From Eledone cirrhosa (taxonomy: Eukaryota): DNA of 64,000 bases. Shown here piece after piece: positions 7,369-62,190 of this stretch. Where the stretch lies: NCBI GenBank assembly GCA_964016885.1, contig OZ024743.1, forward strand, positions 302,374,001-302,438,000, in the 5' to 3' direction. Each line of letters begins with the position of its first letter. Position 1 is the stretch's first letter. Made by a program: the position numbers and the translations under genes. The notes under the pieces were generated by a model, which ran no database searches, had not been told where the DNA came from, and saw nothing but the letters and a program-made list of their open reading frames with translations.

Positions 7369-9056
7369 CTTTAAGTCGTTTGGAAGCCTCGACATTGCAG
7401 ATGGGTAAATCTCCGGGTAACAAGATCCGAGAGAGATGTTAGTGGGTGTACGTTGAGATGCGTGGCGTGTAACGAGTAGAGGAATGAAGGAAAGAGCGTA
7501 AAGGATAAAAATAAAAATAAGAACACGAGAAAGAGTTACCTTGGGAGAGATTTAATTGTCCCTATATATTTAGGATTCACATCCAACAACTGGGTTTTTT
7601 TCCAGGGGGGAGGGGGGGTGATGTCCGTCGGAAAGGTGCGAAACGTATCCTCCGCAGTTCGTTATTTTGAATATCTGAGGTATTCAGCAGAGCGCGCGTG
7701 CGCATGAAATGGAGTCAGTCAGGCAGAGGTCAGCGGCCGAGAGTAGTTTGTGGGAGTGGGGTGGCGCTAGCTGTCAGTCCATACTCTGCCTGTTTCGTGA
7801 ATGTTACTTTGTGTGTGTGTGCGTGTGTTGTTGTCTCGCTTGAGTGTGTGTGCGTGTGTTATTGCCTTGTTCCTCTGTATTGGCAGTGTAGTATGTTCGT
7901 ATGGTGGAATGCTACTGTGCGTGCGTATGCTTGTGTTGCTGACTCGCTTGTGTGTGTGTGTGTTGCTGCATCGTTTGTTAACTTAAACCAAACACCTCAT
8001 TTCACTTCTGTCGGATCGGTTGTTTAATTGTGGCCCTAGGCGTTTGATCCAAAGTGCTTCCTTGATACGTAACGTGCCGACGTTTCTTTCTGTCGCTAGA
8101 ATTGTGACAATGGACCTTCCGTCTTTGTTTCCATATTTGGCTATGTGTTTCCGGAAAGACGAGGCCCTGGTTTTAGTGAGTTCCTTGACCCGGATGTGCA
8201 ACGGCTGGATTGTGCTACCTATAGGGTATTGGTTGCACTTGTTACATTCTATCTCATACACGACGTATGTGCGTAGACAACAGTTCGCATGGCGCATCGG
8301 GCAGTCTCTGATGCAGCACGCGTCAGTTAATTTCCCGGGTTTCCTGGAGAGGCATCTTCGCAGGGAGGGGCTAGAGTGGGCCAGGTGGATATCGAGGCCC
8401 TCCCTCCGTATATCCTTGCGGATAGCATTGGTGGTATTCTTGCCTTGGGTGCCTCTCTGTCTCTTGTGCCTGGTGTCTCCTACACTGTCTGTGAGCGAGG
8501 TAGGGTACCGGTTCGTCTCCAGCACCTCGAGTAATCGCTTGGTATGAGTGACACCACTCGCGTGATCGCTGCATCTGTTTTTGATTCGAGCGATCTCGTT
8601 CGTGATGTATCCTCTTTTGGCACTGTAGGGATGGCGGACTTGTAGTGGACGAACAGGTCCCTGCAGGCTGCCTTTCGGAAGAAGTTGCAGTGGATCCCTC
8701 CTTGTTCCGTGATGTTGATTCGGAAGTCAAGGAGGGCAAGTGATCCGTCGTCGTTAGGTTGTTCAAGACTGAAGTCAATTTTCTCGTCCGTGTTGTTGAA
8801 CGTCTCATAGATTCTGTTCGCCATGTCTTGGGAAGAGGGTGAGGATGAGGATATCGTCCACGTACCTTGAGTAAAAGGTGATGGCACTGGGGTGGCAGGT
8901 GTTGAGTGCCTTGAGCTCGAGGCTGTCTATGTAAGAGATCGCTAGCACACCCGACAGGCTTGATCCCATAGGCAGTCCCTAGGTTTGTCGGTATGTTTGG
9001 TCAAGGAATCGAATCCGACGTAGGTGCTGTGGACGACGATGGAGAGGAGTTGGTGG

Positions 9057-9108: not shown

Positions 9109-10060
9109 AGGGTGTTAGTTGTGTATTCACATATAAACACTCGCAAGCACACTCACGCACGCGCACACATACACACATACACACACACACACAAACACAA
9201 ACACACACACACACATAGACACACACACATATATATATATATATATTTAATTTGAATGTTAATTAATCTCTAATACATAAACTTCTCAATGAGTGGAATC
9301 AATATTTTATATTAAATCTAAGTGAGAAACAACTCTATTTATTGGAGTATAAGCCAGATAGATGAAACAGATATTCTATCGACACACTTTTGTTAGCATA
9401 TCTCCCTACCATGGCTTTGTTTGCGGAGGACCCTTTATTTTTAAATTTAAAAAAAAGTATCCGCAATATTCTTCAGGGATGTTTTAATTCTTTAAAATTT
9501 AACGGTATAAAAACTAAGAATGTATACATTATTTCTTTGCCGAGGTCTCCTTGTGAACAAAAACAAACGTTATGCAGTTGAATGACTAAATGATTAACAT
9601 TCTATCAATATATTAGGAATATTACTTCTCCAACGGATTCCACTTATTGAAGTGTTTAATTATTAGAGACTAACTAACGTTTAATTAATATTCTTAAATT
9701 CATCGAGTTGTATCAGAAATTGTTTTGGCTGCGATTTACGGCTTCATTATGAGCCTGTTATATAATCCTAATATTTTGATCTTTTAATAGTTCAACTACA
9801 AAACGTGTTTTTTTTTTCCAGTAAGCCAAACAAACTATATATATAATTTCTTGATTTCCATACCCTTATTTTTCTCTCCTGAAGAGTGTTGTGGATTCTT
9901 CAAGACTTGGTGTCTCTAATAATAGTTTTTTCCGCAAACGAATCCATGGTGTGGACATCTTCATACAAGTGACTATGGATTGATTTCTTTTTTGTCCATC
10001 TTGGCTGTTTTCACATAAATAGATTTATTTATATATATATATACATATAACTTTATTGTT

Positions 10061-10475
10061 GTCTGTCGGAAAGGTGCGAAACGCGTCCTCCAATGTTCGT
10101 TGTTTTGAATATCAGATATTCAAAACAACGAACAGCGGAGGACGCGTTTCGCACCTTTCCGACAGACGACCTTTCCCCCACCCCGGAAAAAAAACCCAGT
10201 TGATGGATGTGAATCCGAAATATATAGGGACAATTAAATCTCTCCCAAGGTAACTCTCTCTCGTGTTGTTATTTTATTTAATCCTTTTTTCTGTTTCCTT
10301 CATTCCTCTACACGTCTCATACACGCCACGCATCTCAACGTACACCCACCTACATCTCTCTCTCCAGCACCGGATCTTGTTACCCGGAGATTTACCCATT
10401 TGCATTGTCGAGGCTTCCAAACGACTTAAATAAATTTACCTTATTATTCCACAATGCTTAAAGCAAACTTCAATA

Positions 10476-10480
<5 letters not shown>
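10061..10480 (+). mobile_element. Solo pLTR of family C with a 5' fold-back hairpin
   Basis: Near-perfect palindrome 10061-10167 centred at 10114, then a variant hammerhead and donor AAG|GTAACT (10250). Ends in ATGCTTAAAGCAAACTTCAAT, which resembles the PLE ORF start. Confidence 0.8.
10195..10229 (+). ncRNA. Hammerhead-like motif with atypical CAGUUGA core
   Basis: CC-CAGTTGA-T-GGAT(GTGA)ATCC-GAAA-TATA-TA-GGG. Same position in the pLTR as the CCGAAGA hammerhead at 47.0 kb. Confidence 0.55.
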
Positions 10481-21767: not shown

Positions 21768-22094
21768 CTGTCTATCTATCTAGCTATCTATCTCTCTCTC
21801 TCACTCTCTCTCTCTCTTTATGTGTGTGTGTCTCTCTCTCTATCTATTTCTCACTCTCTCTCTCTCAGACACACACATTACGGTCGCACATCATACTGTA
21901 AACCACATCCAATACAGTCGTTTTCTCTTTTTTCCGTCTTCTCTTAACTGTTCCGCCGGGTGAAGCCGAGTACGTCAACTAGAATTTATATATATAAGGA
22001 AAATAAGAAAAAAAGTAGAAAATGCTAATTGGACGTTATCATAGTAAACAGAAAAAACAGATATGTAGTGGCCGGATTGTTCTACCGATATATG

Positions 22095-23030
22095 CCGGAT
22101 CAAAGAGCACATCAACACCAGGGCCTCATCTTTCCGGAAACACCTCACTAAATGCAGAAACAAAGACGGATGGCCCATTGTCACTGTGCTAGCAACGAAA
22201 CGCCACATCGGCACGCTACAAATCAAGGAAGCACTTTGGATCAAACGCCTAGGGCCACAAATAAATAACCGATCCGAGAGAAGCGAGATGAGGTGGTGGT
22301 GTGAACTAACGAGGCACGAACACACGCACACACACACACACACAGTGACATTCAAACGGTTGTTTTTGTGTGTGTAACACCGCCACCATCCACCGACCTA
22401 ATATAAAAAAAATAGAAAAGATACCAGGCAGAATACTAATACTACCAGACGCCTATACTACACTGCCTGTTCCAAACACACAACACAGGTAAATAGTACA
22501 ATGGACTGACAGCTAATGCCATCCCACTCCCCAAATTAAGAGAATTACTTCGACTCCTGCTTGACCACACCTATTCCGCGCGCATGCGCGCTCTGCCGAA
22601 TACCTCAATTAGTCACGAACAGCCAACAGCAGAGAACACGTTCCATTCCTCTGCGACAGATAACATTTCCCCTCCGGAAAATCTCCCAGTTGATGGATGC
22701 GAATCCGAATTATAGGCACAATTAAATCTCTCCAAGTTAACTCTATCTCGTGTTATTATTTTTTTATTTTTTAAGGTCTTTCCTACGTTCCTCTACACAC
22801 TTTAATTCTCATTCTACATTCCCTTACATCTTGTGTTATTATTTTTATTTTTGCGCTCTTTCCTACGTTCCTCCACGCACCATACATCACATGTTACACC
22901 CCCTTACATCTCTCCCTTCAACACAGGATCCTGTTACCCGGAGAATTACCCATCTGCATTGTTGACGCTTCCAAAACGACCAAAATATAATAAATGTTAT
23001 TACTTCACAATGCTTCAAGCAAACTTCAAT
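22095..23030 (+). mobile_element. 3' end of a family C PLE (GIY-YIG C-terminus, 3' UTR, pLTR)
   Basis: RIKEHINTRASSFRKHL...IKEALWIKRLGPQINNR. CAGTTGA motif at 22687. Ends in ATGCTTCAAGCAAACTTCAAT (MLQANFN). Confidence 0.9.
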
Positions 23031-41823: not shown

Positions 41824-43026
41824 ATGCCACCAAAGTCTCAACAAAACAACAACTCACTGAACCAGGACATCTTAAATGAACTCAAAGAGATTTCCTCTAA
41901 ACTCTCAATCTTGACCAACAAAGTTGACCAAATACACATCTATAAAAAAGGACCCCACGAAGAAACAGAAAATATCCAAGAGACGAATATTACTCCAGTA
42001 TTAACTAAGCTAATCAAAACCATTGAAACAGCAATGCTCCAAAAGCTGGAACAACCGTTAGAACCCAATCTTCGAGATGTCCACTCAGTGAAAAACACCC
42101 TAATCAACATATGGACTCAAAAGCTCACAGCCCGCAAATTCGCCCTTTCGAATCTCAAAAAAAATAATGGCAAGGCAGACATATATGAAAAGTGGCTAAA
42201 CTCTACCCCAATCATCCTCCCCAAAAAACTCCAAATAAAACCCATCCCGAATGAACCAGAAAACCAACAAAGACTTAGGGAAAAGATGGCATTGGAAAAA
42301 TGTAAAACAGAAATAGAACTGTTGCGATTAAGAGCCAACTCCAACGAAGAAAAGTTCAAGTCACTCGACCAACAGATGGACACAGAAATCAGAAAGCACT
42401 CTGAAGGCCTACTCTACAAAAAAACCCTAAAACTTTGGAAAGAAAACGGTGAGGATGAAGAACTAACATCCCACCAGCGATGGGAAAAAAACGCCACCTG
42501 GTTCAACAACTACGAAATGGACTTCAAAAATGAACAACATACATGTAACCCATTTTTAAAACAAACTAAAACTCACACACCACATGCACAACAAATAACA
42601 AAAAAAGTAACAAAACGTCCAACATACCCCCAGCAAAACTATAACGATAATCCCAGAAACCATACACAAAAATATAACCCTACTAACAAAAACCAAAGAT
42701 CCCCGAACACAAGGCAGGACCTGATCCGCAGATCACAACCCACACAAAACCTATTCAAAAACCGTAGACCCCTGCCCACACAGAGCCTGTTCCAAAACCG
42801 TAGATCCCAACCCACACAAAGGAACCAAATCTACAACCCGGACTATCAACAAACCGAACCTCAATACGTCCGAAACTTCTATACAAGACCACACAACTAC
42901 AGGGGAAATACCATTAGATATAATAATACCAATGAAAAAACATTCCCGAAAAATCATTTTTTAGACCAAGGCTACAGGACTCACGGCACCCGGTGGCACA
43001 AACCGATGTTGAAAAACCGAAAATAA
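41824..43026 (+). CDS. PLE ORF1, 400 aa: predicted coiled-coil N-half and N/Q/R-rich low-complexity tail
   Basis: Uninterrupted ORF starting just after the 5' pLTR. Heptad-like segments and RRSQPTQ-like repeats. Confidence 0.8.
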   Translation: MPPKSQQNNNSLNQDILNELKEISSKLSILTNKVDQIHIYKKGPHEETENIQETNITPVLTKLIKTIETAMLQKLEQPLEPNLRDVHSVKNTLINIWTQKLTARKFALSNLKKNNGKADIYEKWLNSTPIILPKKLQIKPIPNEPENQQRLREKMALEKCKTEIELLRLRANSNEEKFKSLDQQMDTEIRKHSEGLLYKKTLKLWKENGEDEELTSHQRWEKNATWFNNYEMDFKNEQHTCNPFLKQTKTHTPHAQQITKKVTKRPTYPQQNYNDNPRNHTQKYNPTNKNQRSPNTRQDLIRRSQPTQNLFKNRRPLPTQSLFQNRRSQPTQRNQIYNPDYQQTEPQYVRNFYTRPHNYRGNTIRYNNTNEKTFPKNHFLDQGYRTHGTRWHKPMLKNRK

Positions 43027-45249
43027 TTAACATTTCAAATAAAATCCTCTCAGCCCAACAAGTAAAAATTCTCTCCAAAGTTCTGAAATTCACACCAACA
43101 CACGAACGAGATAAATGACGATATCTCACACTTCTGTAGAAAATTACGTCTCACAGAGGAATTCTTTGACAAGGAGAATAACGACGAATCAATTGTACGG
43201 AATAAAAGCAGCTACAACCCAACAAAAGGTAGAAACAGAGTTCTGGACAAATGTTGTGACTATATAGCTACCTTCCCATACCATGAACTACCGCAACCTA
43301 AACCCAAACCCAACACGAGTCGAAGGGAATGGGAGATTATCCATTAACTAAAAAACAATACGGACATTATAATTAAGGAAGCGGACAAGGGAAGTACTGT
43401 TGTCATTATGGAGGCTGAAAAATATAAAAATTCTATGTTCTCTCTCTTACAAAATACTAATTGCTATGAAAGAGTAAAAAACTACCAGCAATCAAAACTA
43501 ATACACAATATAAAAAACACTGATTTATCGATACCAGGAAGACCTAACTAAAAAGGAACGCGATTATTTAACAAATTTTGAATACAAAACCAGCAACATT
43601 TACGGACTTCCGAAGATCCACAAGTGTGAAATAATCAACGATGCCTGTAAACAATCCACCTCAGCCTGCGTGAACACACAATACCCCACAGACCTTAAAT
43701 TAAGACCAATTGTAGCGGGCCCACAATGTGAAACACACAGATTGAGCAACTTTATAGACATACTACTGAAACCAATACTGAAACACATAACAAGCCTTGT
43801 AAGAGACGATCTGGACCTCCTAAACCACCTCCCCAAACATGTCAACAACGACACTATTAGTGTGTCTTTCGATGTAGTGAATCTCTACACAGCGATACCA
43901 CACCAATACGGACTAGAAGCAATAGGATTCTGGCTAGAGAAATATCCCAATGAGATACCTGACAGAATAGAAAAAAGCTTCATCACCGAGGGATTAACAT
44001 TCATCCTACAGAACAACTTTTTTGATTTCGAAGGCAATACTTACAAGCAAATATCGGGGACTGCGATGGGTACAAAAGCCGCTCCAACTTATGCCAACTT
44101 AGTCATGGCATACTTAGCAGTCCAGATATATGAACAGTCCAAATCAAAATACGGATTGAACTTCCACAAATATTTATCAGAGAATTGGAAACGCTACTTG
44201 AATGATTGCCTCATTATTTGGTCCCACACACTCGACCAACTGAAGGATTTCAAAAACTTAATAAACGGCATCAATAACCACTTTAAATTCACAATGGAAT
44301 ACAGCCAAGATCAACTCCCCTTTCTGGACATCTTAATCTTAAAAAAAGACACAAATATCGAAACTGACATACACTACAAACCAACAAATTCCAAACAATA
44401 TCTGCTATTCACCTCCAACCATCCAAAGCACACGAAGACGAACATTCCTTTTAACCTAGCAAAAGAATTTGCACAATTGTCTCCAATTATGAAACGCGAA
44501 ATAAAAGACTTCAAGAATTAAAGGAAATTCTACTTGAGAGAGAGTACCCACTAGTACTAATAAATAATGGAATAGAAAGGGCTAAAGCAATAGGCATTGA
44601 TGAATTACGGAAACAGAAACAAATTCAAGGTACGTCCAATATTCTATCATATATCTCAACACACATCCCAAGAAATGCGGAAGCTTACAACACTATTCAC
44701 AATAACATTCCACTACTAAAACAAAACCCAAGAATGAAAAAAGCCCTTGAAAGACACAAAATAATCAAAAGCAAAAGACAACCAAAATCACTGAAAACAT
44801 TACTCACCAATGCCAAATTACCTACCACAAACCCAACACCAAGTATCAAAAAATGTGGTCGCTCTAATTGTGGAATCTGCATTCACCTCATTGAAGGCAA
44901 CACGTATACATTTAAATCAGGACAACATTTTACTGTAAAAAATCACTTCACTTGCTCATCAAAAAATCTAGTTTATGCCATTAAATGTAAAGGATGCAAT
45001 GAAGATTATATAGGACAAACTAAACTCACACTCAGAAACAGAATGACAGTTCATCGCCAACAATTACGAGATCCAACCACGAGACAGATACCACTAAGTG
45101 CACATCTAGACATTTGCGCAAGTAATAAGACGCCCAAATTCCAAGTCTTCCCATTTTACCTTTGCGCTAACAATACAACAGAACAAATGCGAATAAATAA
45201 GGAAAATATGTTTATTCAAAAATATAGACCAACATTAAATAAGGTTTAA
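42957..45249 (+). pseudogene. PLE ORF2: RT, Cys linker and GIY-YIG endonuclease, disrupted
   Basis: IINISNKILS...LKFTPT, EADKG, YGLPKIHK, RPIVAG, FDVVNLYT, QISGTAMGT, RYLND (YxDD mutated), CGRSNCGIC, LVYAIKC...YIGQT. Several frameshifts and a stop. Confidence 0.92.
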
Positions 45250-47000: not shown

Positions 47001-47035
47001 CCTTAATTTTCGAGATAATATCTCTTCTTCGGAGG
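47001..47035 (-). ncRNA. Minimal hammerhead, U4C core
   Basis: CCT-CCGAAGA-A-GAGAT(ATT)ATCTC-GAAA-AT-TA^AGG. Confidence 0.65.
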
Positions 47036-47442: not shown

Positions 47443-50027
47443 TCAGGTTATAAATTGGGTGTTGAGTTCTAGTCTATTATTGATTGGTGGTTGTGTTTTA
47501 TCTATAATTAGTGCTTCCTTAATTCTAAGATTGCCGAGATTTCTTTCCTTAGTTTCTATCATAACTGTTATGGTTTTGTCGGTGTTTTTGCATTTAACTA
47601 GGTGTTTCTTAAATGAGGAAGCGTTAGTATTGAGGTGTTCTTTTATTCTTATGTGGAGTGGTCTGGTGGTGCTACCTACGTAGAAGTTGTTGCATTTGTC
47701 ACACTCTAGTCTGTATACTACGTAAGCCTGGTGACATAGGTCTGTGTCGTTGATGTGGCAGTTGGCTAGTCTGCAGCAGTTGTCATGTCTGGTGGAGTGT
47801 CTCTTGGCCAGCCGTCCGCGCAGAGAAGGACCCGAGTGGGCCAGTTGGATATCCAGTCCCTCTCGTCTGATGGCTCTGCGGATGGCTGTTGTTGTTTCTT
47901 CACTGAAGTGTGGGAGCTTCAGGAAGCATGTGTTAGTGCCTCGGGTGTGGTGTCCTCTGTTCTTTCTGGAACGGTTTGTGGTGGATGTCGTGTATCCGTT
48001 CAGTTTGAGTACTTCCAGGAAATGTGTGGTGTGTGTGTGTCTCGGTCTCTAGCGTCGGTGCATTTTTTCCTGATACGTGCCAGTTCGTTCCTTAAGTATC
48101 CGAACTTGGCACCGAGTGGGAGGGCCGATCTGAAATGTACGAACAGGTCCCTGCTGGCGGATTTTTTATAGAAGCAGGTGTGGTAGTTGCCTTCCTCTGT
48201 TACCCTGAGTTGGAAGTCCAGTAGGGATAGGGATCCGCGGTCATCGGGTGGTTCCATGCTGAACTTTATACTGGCGTCCATGCTGGAGAATGTTGTGTAT
48301 ATTTTCTCTGCCTCCTCACGGGATGATGTAAGGATGAGTATGTCATCTACATATCGGGTGAAGAAGGCATGGAAATGGCAGGTGTTGAGGGCCCGGCATT
48401 CTAGCTGGTTCATGTAGGTGATGGCCAGCAGGCCCGATAGGCTGGATCCCATGGGTAATCCTGTTGTCTGTCTGTATGTGTGGTGGTGGAAGGTGAAGTA
48501 CGTGTTGTCTACTGTGAAGGACAAAAGCTGGTGTATGTCCGTCGGGTGGAGGCCGTAGCAGTGGATGTCCTCTGCGACCACGCAGTCCGTCAATAAATCG
48601 ACAGCTGGATGAGCGGGGACTGTAGTGTAGAGGGAGACAACGTCGAGGCTAAAAGCGTATTTATTTAGTTTAAGTTGTCGTGGCTGGAGGTGGTGTAGTC
48701 TACGTATAACTTGGTCGGAGCTACTGACATGCCCGGGGAAGGTGGAGAGTAGAGGCTTGAGGACCTGGGAGAGAAACCAGGAAATTTTGTGTAGAGGTCC
48801 TTCTATGCTAGAGACGATGGGTCTTATTTGCGTCTTAGTACTATTCCTGTGGGTCTTGATGAGGTGGTAGAAAGTGGGCAGTCTGCTATTTCTAGTGGTG
48901 TAGTTGAGCTTAACTTTATTCGGGAGTTGTCTTCTCCTACAGATATCGAACCAAATGGAGTTGGTCTGTTTTTCGATCTGGGCTGCAGTCATGTCCGGGA
49001 TCACTGTGTATAATTCACTGTCGCTTAGGTGTTCGAAGGCTAGGTTATTGTATGTGGCTTGAGAGATGACGCAAAACTCTTTACCTTTGTCGGCTGGTAA
49101 GTAAATAAGTTCCCTATTCCGTATGTTCTTCAGAGTGAGTTGTTGTGTCCTGGAGAGGTTTGGGGCCATCTTCTTCTGTTTCCGTAAGATGTTAAATACG
49201 GAATGTTTTAGTCTCGAGAGTTTTTCTTCCAGCTCGCGGTTGGCAGGCGGTGGATAGAGTGGGCGATCTGGTTGGTATATCGGGAATCTGGGTGTGATGG
49301 ATTCCGTGGTGTTGTTGTCGAGAGTCGATATCCATTTCAGTTGGTAGGCAGCCCGACAGAAATTCGTTTCTATGTCGAGCCATAGTCTGTCGTCCAGTCT
49401 CTGTTTCAATATGAACTTGGGGCCCAGGCTGAGGAGGTCTAATTCCTCTCGGGAGAGGGATCCTGTCAAGTCTGTGCCGAGGTGTTTTGCGTCAGGTGTG
49501 TTGTTGGTCGGGGCGCCGCTAGGTTCGGTGTTGGTAACGTCTTGTTCGCCTCTGTTGTTGTTTAGCGTTGGGATGTTGTTAAGACAGTTGGCCGTCCTGA
49601 GTTTGAGAAATGTTTGCGTTAGACGTATTTTCTCGTAGTCTCGGCCGTGGTGGTATGACCTGTCTATAGTGGCGGAGATGACTCTGGACAGAGGTTCTGG
49701 GGTTTCAGCGAGTTGTGGTACAAGGCTGCAAATAGTCCGTATGTGATGTTGTAGCGTGCGGTGTAGGTGTTGTATGAGTTTCCTTAGGCAGAATTTGTGT
49801 ATGTAACTAAGTGATCGTTTGAAGCCTGGCGATTTAAAGCATGTTGGTAGGTGCAAATTTTTGATAGTTTTGGGGATGATGTTGTTATTCAGGCATCGTT
49901 TTAGGAAGTTTATTTGGCAGCCGGATTTGGCGCGCTTTTCAGATAGCTGGAAGAGTTTCTTTACAGTTGTGAACTGAGCCTGGCTCAGGCATAATGAAAG
50001 GAGGAGGTTATAGTTCACTTGAAGCAT
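47443..50027 (-). CDS. PLE RT-GIY-YIG polyprotein (~860 aa) with one frameshift at ~48035
   Basis: LSLGPKF, PADKG, FYHLIKTH, RPIVSS, SLDVVSLYT, QTTGLPMGS, RYVDD. After the frameshift: LKLNGY, CCRLANC, VVYRLECDKC, YVGSTTRPLHIRIKEH, stop at 47443. Confidence 0.92.
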
Positions 50028-50715
50028 TGAGTAATTATTTTTATTTTATTTTTTTTCCCTTCGCTTTAACAACTTTCTTCAATTACATCTAACTCTTATA
50101 TATCATATCTATATGAATTAATATAAATTTATCAATATGAATATACCTATCAATTAAATTAATTTATTTTATGTTTATAGATGTAAATTCCTTATGTTTT
50201 AAATAAGATTGATATTTTTCACTAACACATTTATCATAAAATGTTATTCTCCTTAGATTTTAACACTAGCATTATTCTTTTATAACATCAGATGGTCGTG
50301 TATCTTTCACCGGCTTGACCTATTTTCATCCCAAAAGTAATCTTTTCATTCAAAATACTCTTTCCATTCAAAACTAAAGTCTGCTTTCCTCTACCCCTAA
50401 ATTAAATTTCAATTACTACTATTCTATCATCTTTACCACTTACTACCTTTCTATTGGTCAATCCAAAACCTGTTCCCAAACAGACCTATTATATGAAATC
50501 TTTGTTGGGTTTTTTTCAATAAACAAATATCATTATTTCTGAAGAGAGCATATATATGTGTAGGTATGTATATTCCCTCTGATAGTTTGTAAACAAATGT
50601 TACATAGATCTATATAATAAACATACCAACACAACCATATATATCCTAGAAATGATCGAAAAATGATGAAATGTTTAATATAAGGTTTCTTTGTTTTTAT
50701 TCATTATTTTTATTA

Positions 50716-61898: not shown

Positions 61899-62190
61899 TA
61901 TTGTTATACTTTGGGAAGGTCATGTTGCCAATAAGAAACACACACACCAGTTGCTTTCACTTCAATTTATTATAATAAATTTATAAATTAAGGAATTTAT
62001 AAATCTCTGGTTGGTTGGTTGGTTCCACAACCAGATAGTTGTTTATATATATTGTCAAAGTTCTTTCGTCACACGTTCCGTGACCTCTTCAGTGACTGGG
62101 GATTATTTTCTTTGTTTTTGTGCCTCTCCTTTGTTCTGTCCTACGCCATTTTCTTATTGGCAACATGACCCTCCCAAAGTATAACAATAT
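61899..62190 (-). mobile_element. Solo pLTR (family D-related) with ~40-bp inverted end
   Basis: Inverted repeats 61899-61938 and 62151-62190. Contains a hammerhead. Confidence 0.8.
62054..62096 (-). ncRNA. Type I minimal hammerhead ribozyme
   Basis: GTCA-CTGAAGA-G-GTCAC(GGAACGT)GTGAC-GAAA-GAAC-TT^TGAC. Confidence 0.78.

Follow-up and report, generated by a model that had tools for sequence, protein, structure and literature searches.

A hammerhead ribozyme homolog with altered U-turn positions 4 and 6 is a fixed feature of a high-copy Penelope-like element family in Eledone cirrhosa

The minimal hammerhead ribozymes found in metazoan Penelope-like elements (PLEs) are marked by an extra nucleotide, a G10.1-C11.1 pair and a palindromic helix III, and the core change named in the available text of their description is U3-A8 (Cervera and de la Pena 2014, PMC4209133). 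Natural core variants from other sources, so far as the accessible part of Perreault et al. 2011 (PMC3088659) presents them, include an A6C hammerhead of phage Bcep176 that cleaves at <0.1/min, a U4C change that leaves a viroid infectious, and again U3-A8. According to the portion available of a pairwise mutational scan conducted on a type III scaffold, both single and double mutants of the U-turn have low activity, the C3-G8 swap excepted (PMC9901934). Our literature search returned no report of a natural U4A/A6U hammerhead in the text it reached, although Lunse 2017 and the supplements of Cervera 2014 may contain such variants.

The role of PLE hammerheads is in question, with low in vitro activity among the reasons. 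The hammerhead of the green anole element PAc, a member of the Poseidon group, cuts only together with the element's own protein, and in the sections of the report available to us its cleavage is dispensable for insertion in vitro and 0 RNA-seq reads end at the site in vivo (Frangieh et al. 2024, PMC11167929). Naiad and Chlamys elements, which have no canonical hammerhead, are described, in the accessible part of their report, as proliferating well (Craig et al. 2021, PMC8557442). Cleavage within the 5' UTRs of viruses can initiate translation, as the excerpt of another report states (PMC13725137), and it is a speculative thought that a cut upstream of a PLE open reading frame (ORF) is used in the same way.

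The motif considered here lies at positions 10195..10229 on the forward strand of a 64,000-nucleotide stretch of the Eledone cirrhosa genome, hereafter the window. It is a homolog of the minimal type I hammerhead and belongs to subfamily C1 of a family that we call C. Core positions 3-9 occupy 10197..10203 (C3=10197, A4=10198, G5, U6=10200, U7, G8=10202, A9) and carry U4A and A6U, with the C3-G8 pair, G5 and A9 retained. A single extra U (9a) at 10204, between positions 9 and 10.1, precedes stem II and loop II (10205..10216), which consist of 4 bp including G10.1-C11.1 and a GNRA loop. The stretch 10217..10226 then holds the 3' core G12-A13-A14 (10217-10219), a self-complementary helix III formed by a 6-nt palindrome (10220-10225) and A17 (10226), and the predicted cut falls between 10226 and 10227. 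The strands of stem I, 10195-96 paired with 10227-29, flank the core.

Because A4 and U6 are fixed, the motif departs from the canonical core C3-U4-G5-A6-N7-G8-A9. The other core features are nevertheless present (G12-A13-A14, A15.1-U16.1, a non-G N17 and the C3-G8 pair), as are the marks of PLE minimal hammerheads, namely nucleotide 9a, G10.1-C11.1, a palindromic helix III and a location in the pLTR. The likeness to the elements covered in the available text of PMC4209133 extends to a short helix I, thousands of solo copies and a host that encodes reverse transcriptase (RT) and GIY-YIG domains; the difference lies in the fixed U4A plus A6U, where the core change named there is U3-A8. Folded as a monomer, the 10195 motif has ordinary stability (z -0.42).

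There are two further C-type motifs in the window. A decayed C2 copy at 22685..22717 (+; C3=22687) has the same core letters as the 10195 copy, and a decayed C1 copy at 7560..7594 (-; C3=7592) has a private A9U in the core as well as a private G12U; the first-pass annotation had given the core letters of both copies correctly. A sister family, D, is represented by a hammerhead at 47001..47035 (-; predicted cut 47004/47003) that keeps A6. The annotation had given its core as CCGAAGA, which holds for A6 but not as a fixed C at position 4, where family D is polymorphic for U and C. Likewise, the 4-bp stem II that it reported stands, but the GNRA loop is not conserved, and loops of 5 nt are found in subfamilies C3 and C4 and in a further family, K. 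Another canonical-core hammerhead is located at 62092 (-) of the window, in an unrelated repeat family, and a tandem repeat array elsewhere (G000:C1:2624893-2639846; L225-L229) matches the hammerhead pattern by chance and has no stem II. The window also includes a different PLE family (41626(+), the 46652 area and 41824-45249(+)), which has an upstream ORF, a linker of the form CxxxxCxxC and a hammerhead carrying the known U3-A8 covariation.

Rfam models give 0 hammerhead matches in the window and in full-length C and E elements, E being a second relative introduced below. This result is uninformative because family D is missed as well, the models having no coverage of the minimal form. A structural scan of 225 sequences found no second canonical hammerhead within C or E elements. 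One could argue from the Rfam result, and from the fact that the letters past position 5 are readable as a shifted core, that the motif is not a hammerhead homolog or that it is one to be read in another register, in which a U3-U4-G5-A6 core follows an insertion. This proposal is scarcely credible, since it is refuted by family K, an old group (copies 69-84% alike to the query) that keeps A6 and has C or U at position 4. Its stem II and downstream sequence are as in C, and the two align without a gap and differ in the core only at positions 4, 6 and 7. Homology of the C motif to the hammerhead is fixed by this close, older family that retains A6.

The earlier claim that the 10195 motif is homologous in position to the hammerhead at 47.0 kb is confirmed. 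The shared downstream sequence includes a motif at 10247..10254 (+), 20-35 nt past the cut site, that is conserved in all related families. It ends in AG/GT and looks like a splice donor rather than a part of the ribozyme, so that the 5' UTR may contain an intron, as that of Penelope does. In C, K and E the letters at positions 9, 9a and 10.1 (10203-10205) are AUG, from which short upstream ORFs of differing lengths start, and the ORF of the anole PLE begins at the corresponding place; we considered and rejected this AUG as the main start, the frames to the donor varying among subfamilies.

The host of the C motif is confirmed as an EN+ PLE with the motif in its pLTR, in agreement with the setting first annotated. 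The assignment draws on the RT and GIY-YIG sequences upstream of the motif, two 3' ends, (TA)n flanks and inverted 5' pieces. The upstream coding sequences are 55-60% identical to those of a family D element at 47443..50045 (-), whose ORF has Pfam RVT_1 and GIY-YIG matches and one frameshift. They include a broken RT-GIY-YIG remnant at 7983..9008 (-), upstream of the 7560 pLTR, and a C2 GIY-YIG fragment at 22069..22377 (+), upstream of the 22685 pLTR. C copies terminate 200-250 nt downstream of the motif at two sites, the second of which contains the first ORF codons, and they adjoin (TA)n, frequently with inverted 5' pieces. The window copy itself is a 5'-truncated solo pLTR at 10106..10480 (+) that ends in the tail with the first codons of the ORF (ATG at 10454); it abuts (TA)n and carries an inverted 5' piece at 10058..10110 (-), a typical PLE inverted end. 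The features of EN+ PLEs are thus all observed: a single ORF coding for RT and, at its C-terminal end, GIY-YIG, tandem or inverted pLTRs, a tail, and AT-rich targets. A short motif at ~10400-10420, common to all ten related families and just upstream of both 3' insertion ends, is a candidate protein-binding or RT-start element.

There is no fully intact ORF among the fetched C copies. A family E copy has a stop-free frame of 1,027 codons (L175:558-3641, +) that crosses the pLTR and the hammerhead and continues into an intact RT-EN ORF, and its protein matches Pfam RVT_1 and GIY-YIG, the latter at 21.2 bits, just below the cut-off. This protein has a visible Cys-rich linker and a CCHH-like pattern, which is unlike the description of Poseidon and Hydra in the accessible part of PMC8557442. 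These elements resemble PAc, as presented in the available text of PMC11167929, in having two 3' ends, a 30-40 nt tail, AT-rich targets and an AUG where stem II begins, but the PAc ORF begins inside the ribozyme, whereas the main ATG here is ~230 nt past the cut. They resemble the Naiad and Chlamys elements, so far as the excerpt of PMC8557442 goes, in reaching high copy number without a canonical core and in targeting (TA)n, and differ in that the EN is C-terminal and the entire fold is retained.

Pattern searches across the 3.0 Gb animal genome confirm that U4A+A6U is the fixed state of the C family. A pattern that leaves positions 4, 6 and 7 free on the C1 stem has 2,976 exact matches (reversed-pattern control, 0), and 99 of the first 100 listed carry A4/U6, the remaining one being G4/U6. 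The core at 10195 is therefore neither a chance occurrence nor a product of decay. Canonical Y4/A6 on the 4-nt-loop stem of C1 has 0 matches genome-wide. The complete C1 motif with <=1 mismatch is matched 3,204 times. Selection by downstream sequence alone yielded 40 sequences, 7 of them lacking a homologous upstream part and one being the window's own copy; among the 33 that remain to be compared, the exact core is present in 26, U6 in all 33 and a canonical core in none. In Logan contigs from 3 DNA runs, no alternative letter reaches >=5% anywhere across 10195-10257. Several statements of the first-pass annotation are thereby upheld, including the reading of CAGTTGA as U4A plus A6U with C3-G8 retained and the view that the variant predates the insertions of its copies, while the genome-wide state for which it had asked proves to be non-canonical. 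The variants in the part of Perreault et al. 2011 (PMC3088659) available to us are also changed at position 4 or 6 and have low but detectable activity. They differ in being rare single cases, whereas >3,000 copies of C are changed at both positions and two lineages have U6 fixed.

The second of these lineages is family E, one of ten related pLTR families that were found by pattern and DNA searches. It has ~1,591 matches (control, 4), of which 97 of the first 100 listed are E-type, with C at position 4, U6, two compensated stem II pairs and U17. Family D has 3,268 matches with A6 and U or C at position 4, and families H and J have a mostly canonical core. In the D-related family D2 (L238, L249, L338-L345), A4 is fixed, A6 is kept and position 17 is C; its position-4 change is independent of that in C. 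Within the C series, subfamily C4 (43 matches) has U6 throughout and U (34), C (6) or G (3) at position 4, and C3, C2 and C1 have A4+U6, an order of subfamilies from which U6 appears to have preceded A4. Helix III is 6 nt long in C1 and 4 nt long in C2-C4, K and E. The 73 non-U6 matches on a C-type stem comprise 48 with A4 (C6, G6 or A6), 19 with Y4+A6 that represent family K, and 6 others. We rejected an A4+A6 intermediate subfamily, as the A4 rows split into 26 C6, 11 G6 and 11 A6 in the manner of single-copy mutations. What had looked like an A6G subfamily within a separate PLE group was also dismissed as noise, given that 95 of the first 100 listed of 3,585 matches there carry A6.

In a protein tree of 31 rows, K groups with C and E lies outside (UFBoot 88/89), and a C+E clade that excludes K is rejected (AU p 0.014; 20 rows; the 5,000 replicates were flagged as too few). 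This points tentatively to two gains of U6 or to a reversion in K; the history is kept tentative because attraction between decayed copies of K and of C4 may affect the trees. Such recurrence is among the observations that would fit a fully active new core, in which the scaffold (9a, dimer, protein) makes U4 and A6 unneeded and C and E cut like D. The separate origin of A4 in D2, the common occurrence of C at position 4 in D, K and E, and the youth and abundance of both U6 lineages, E having an intact ORF, agree with the same idea, but it is opposed by the pairwise mutagenesis in the available part of PMC9901934 and by the insertion junctions discussed below, and we regard it as unlikely.

Core variation among the ten families is confined to positions 4, 6 and 7, with C3, G5, A9, G8, G10.1 and G12-A14 invariant and the helix III palindrome kept, and N17 is A, U or C but never G. 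Across 13 real copies, 94.5% of 91 stem cells are paired (slid controls, 25-56%) and 13 cells have double-sided changes, a number matched by 0/500 shuffles, although relatedness of the copies inflates these statistics and the row for C1 sits one column out of register. A three-way junction is recognizable, in which stems I and II covary; the count of covarying pairs is 3, which is not above shuffles (163/500). The 2-nt gain in helix III of C1 preserves the palindrome. Fourfold sites compared between C1 and E (n=168) are near-saturated, with 56% differing and 43.5% agreeing, and yet each of the 11 core and closing positions is identical in the two (0.435^11 = 1e-4). From this pattern we infer that selection has kept the fold.

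A neutral relic, in which A6U killed the ribozyme and the remainder has not yet decayed, would leave such conservation to be explained by time. Should C and E have gained U6 independently, the time since each change would be shorter than that since the C-E split, and conservation is a weaker test of the relic on this account. However, after U6 was acquired, the passage from C4 to C1 altered position 4, the lengths of the loop and of helix III, and the flanks, and no catalytic or pairing position; C1 and C2 copies, moreover, are 83% identical in protein. We consider the relic improbable.

Selection on the fold could also act through something other than cleavage. Perhaps, in line with the annotation's second proposal of a fold retained without catalysis, the motif is a catalytically dead pseudo-ribozyme whose fold is kept as a protein-binding, dimerization or 5' UTR signal, a possibility to be taken seriously, though not the probable one. 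It would account for the fact that C1 is about as numerous as D (3,204 versus 3,268), and it accords with the low activity of U-turn double mutants (PMC9901934), the proliferation of hammerhead-less Naiad elements (PMC8557442) and the dispensability of cleavage in vitro (PMC11167929), each as given in the accessible text of those papers. The retention of G5, G8, G12 and a non-G N17 despite near-saturated synonymous divergence speaks against it, but weakly, because the same positions are also structural.

Indirect evidence comes from insertion junctions. Copying of cut RNA should yield 5'-truncated copies that start at the cut. Junction patterns in which -2 and -1 had to be mismatched and the anchor was fixed from +10 returned 107 rows for D, of which 100 were listed, and 95 and 46 for C and E, respectively. 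Flanking DNA was checked for all +1 starts and most +2..+5 starts, the tally was made by eye, rows with upstream ribozyme present were dropped, and fold-back arms were merged. In family D, 35 of the 5' ends are at +1, versus 2, 6, 3 and 11 at +2..+5 (mean 5.5; 6.4x; binomial p 1e-11; the 100 listed of 107 rows). The corresponding counts are 8 versus 1, 4, 3 and 7 in family C (mean 3.75; 2.1x; p 0.07, not significant) and 6 versus 4, 5, 6 and 2 in family E (mean 4.25; 1.4x; p 0.31, not significant). Fisher tests of the cut-site share give 0.047 for D vs C, 0.006 for D vs E and 0.003 for D vs C+E.

A design that looks upstream places 31 D events at the site versus 10, 3, 9, 5, 5, 1 and 4 at -1..-7 (first 100 of 115), 9 E events versus 7, 4, 3, 2, 6, 2 and 5, and ~7 C events versus 5, 2 and 5 at -1..-3. 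The cut-site peak in E that this upstream design suggested (9 vs ~3.7) did not hold in the better-controlled design described before it. Counts fall away on either side of the D peak, a shape that would not be expected from microhomology alone, and cut-site junctions in both D and C include fold-backs, perfect ones in D. Six D cut-site events occur in the subtype that, among the copies examined, has C at position 4, on which basis U4C in family D appears to be active in vivo. Unlike PAc, whose described RNA-seq reads do not end at its site (PMC11167929, as available), family D has DNA junctions at its own. Our literature search, within the text it reached, returned no report of such an insertion-junction footprint at a PLE hammerhead cut site.

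The contrast between D and the U6 families is possibly overstated. The +1 base of D is A, mostly with T before the junction, which favours joining to AT-rich flanks and hence capture, and the AT palindrome of C hides half of its junctions into (TA)n (one parity). In addition, G-rich ends may be captured less well. Under-capture of C and E junctions would favour a fully active core, but the shares below D weigh against it. The absence of a significant cut-site peak in C and E is what a dead fold would produce; 8 exact cut-site junctions in C, fold-backs included, count against this. Accordingly, of the annotation's proposal of a new active core variant, the variant is real and fixed, but full-strength activity is unsupported, there being no significant cut-site excess and the mutants in the available part of PMC9901934 having low activity.

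Our preferred explanation, to which we give about an even chance, is that C carries an attenuated hammerhead within a high-copy PLE family, with U-turn positions 4 and 6 changed, the fold and catalytic nucleotides kept, and few transcripts cut. The retention of G5, G8, G12 and non-G N17, together with the weak two-fold excess in C, makes such a slow ribozyme somewhat likelier; the reading is weakened by the lack of significance in C and E and by the low activity of U-turn mutants on the type III scaffold. Under attenuation, two motifs would pair via the palindrome to fold, and the hammerhead would cut a small share of transcripts, probably aided by the element's own protein. Most copies would be made from uncut RNA, residual cleavage would persist, and selection would presumably retain the fold.

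Whatever its activity, the clade provides core alleles in a natural series, among them a double U-turn change, predicted to be poor by pairwise mutagenesis, that is fixed in thousands of recent insertions, and standard hammerhead descriptors would miss the U4A/A6U variant. The junctions offer a readout of cleavage from sequence alone, piling up at the D cut site and being far fewer in the U6 families. A bolder proposal, which we advance with considerable reserve, is that hammerheads free of the U-turn, with positions 4 and 6 released, evolved twice independently with protein supplying the fold, and that the in vivo cleavage of the clade can be read from its junctions, which would show PLE hammerheads to cleave in vivo and the cut RNA to be retrotransposed. 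If the footprint holds, it would constitute in vivo evidence of PLE hammerhead cleavage, and it would mean that the activity of these ribozymes can be lowered without loss of mobility.
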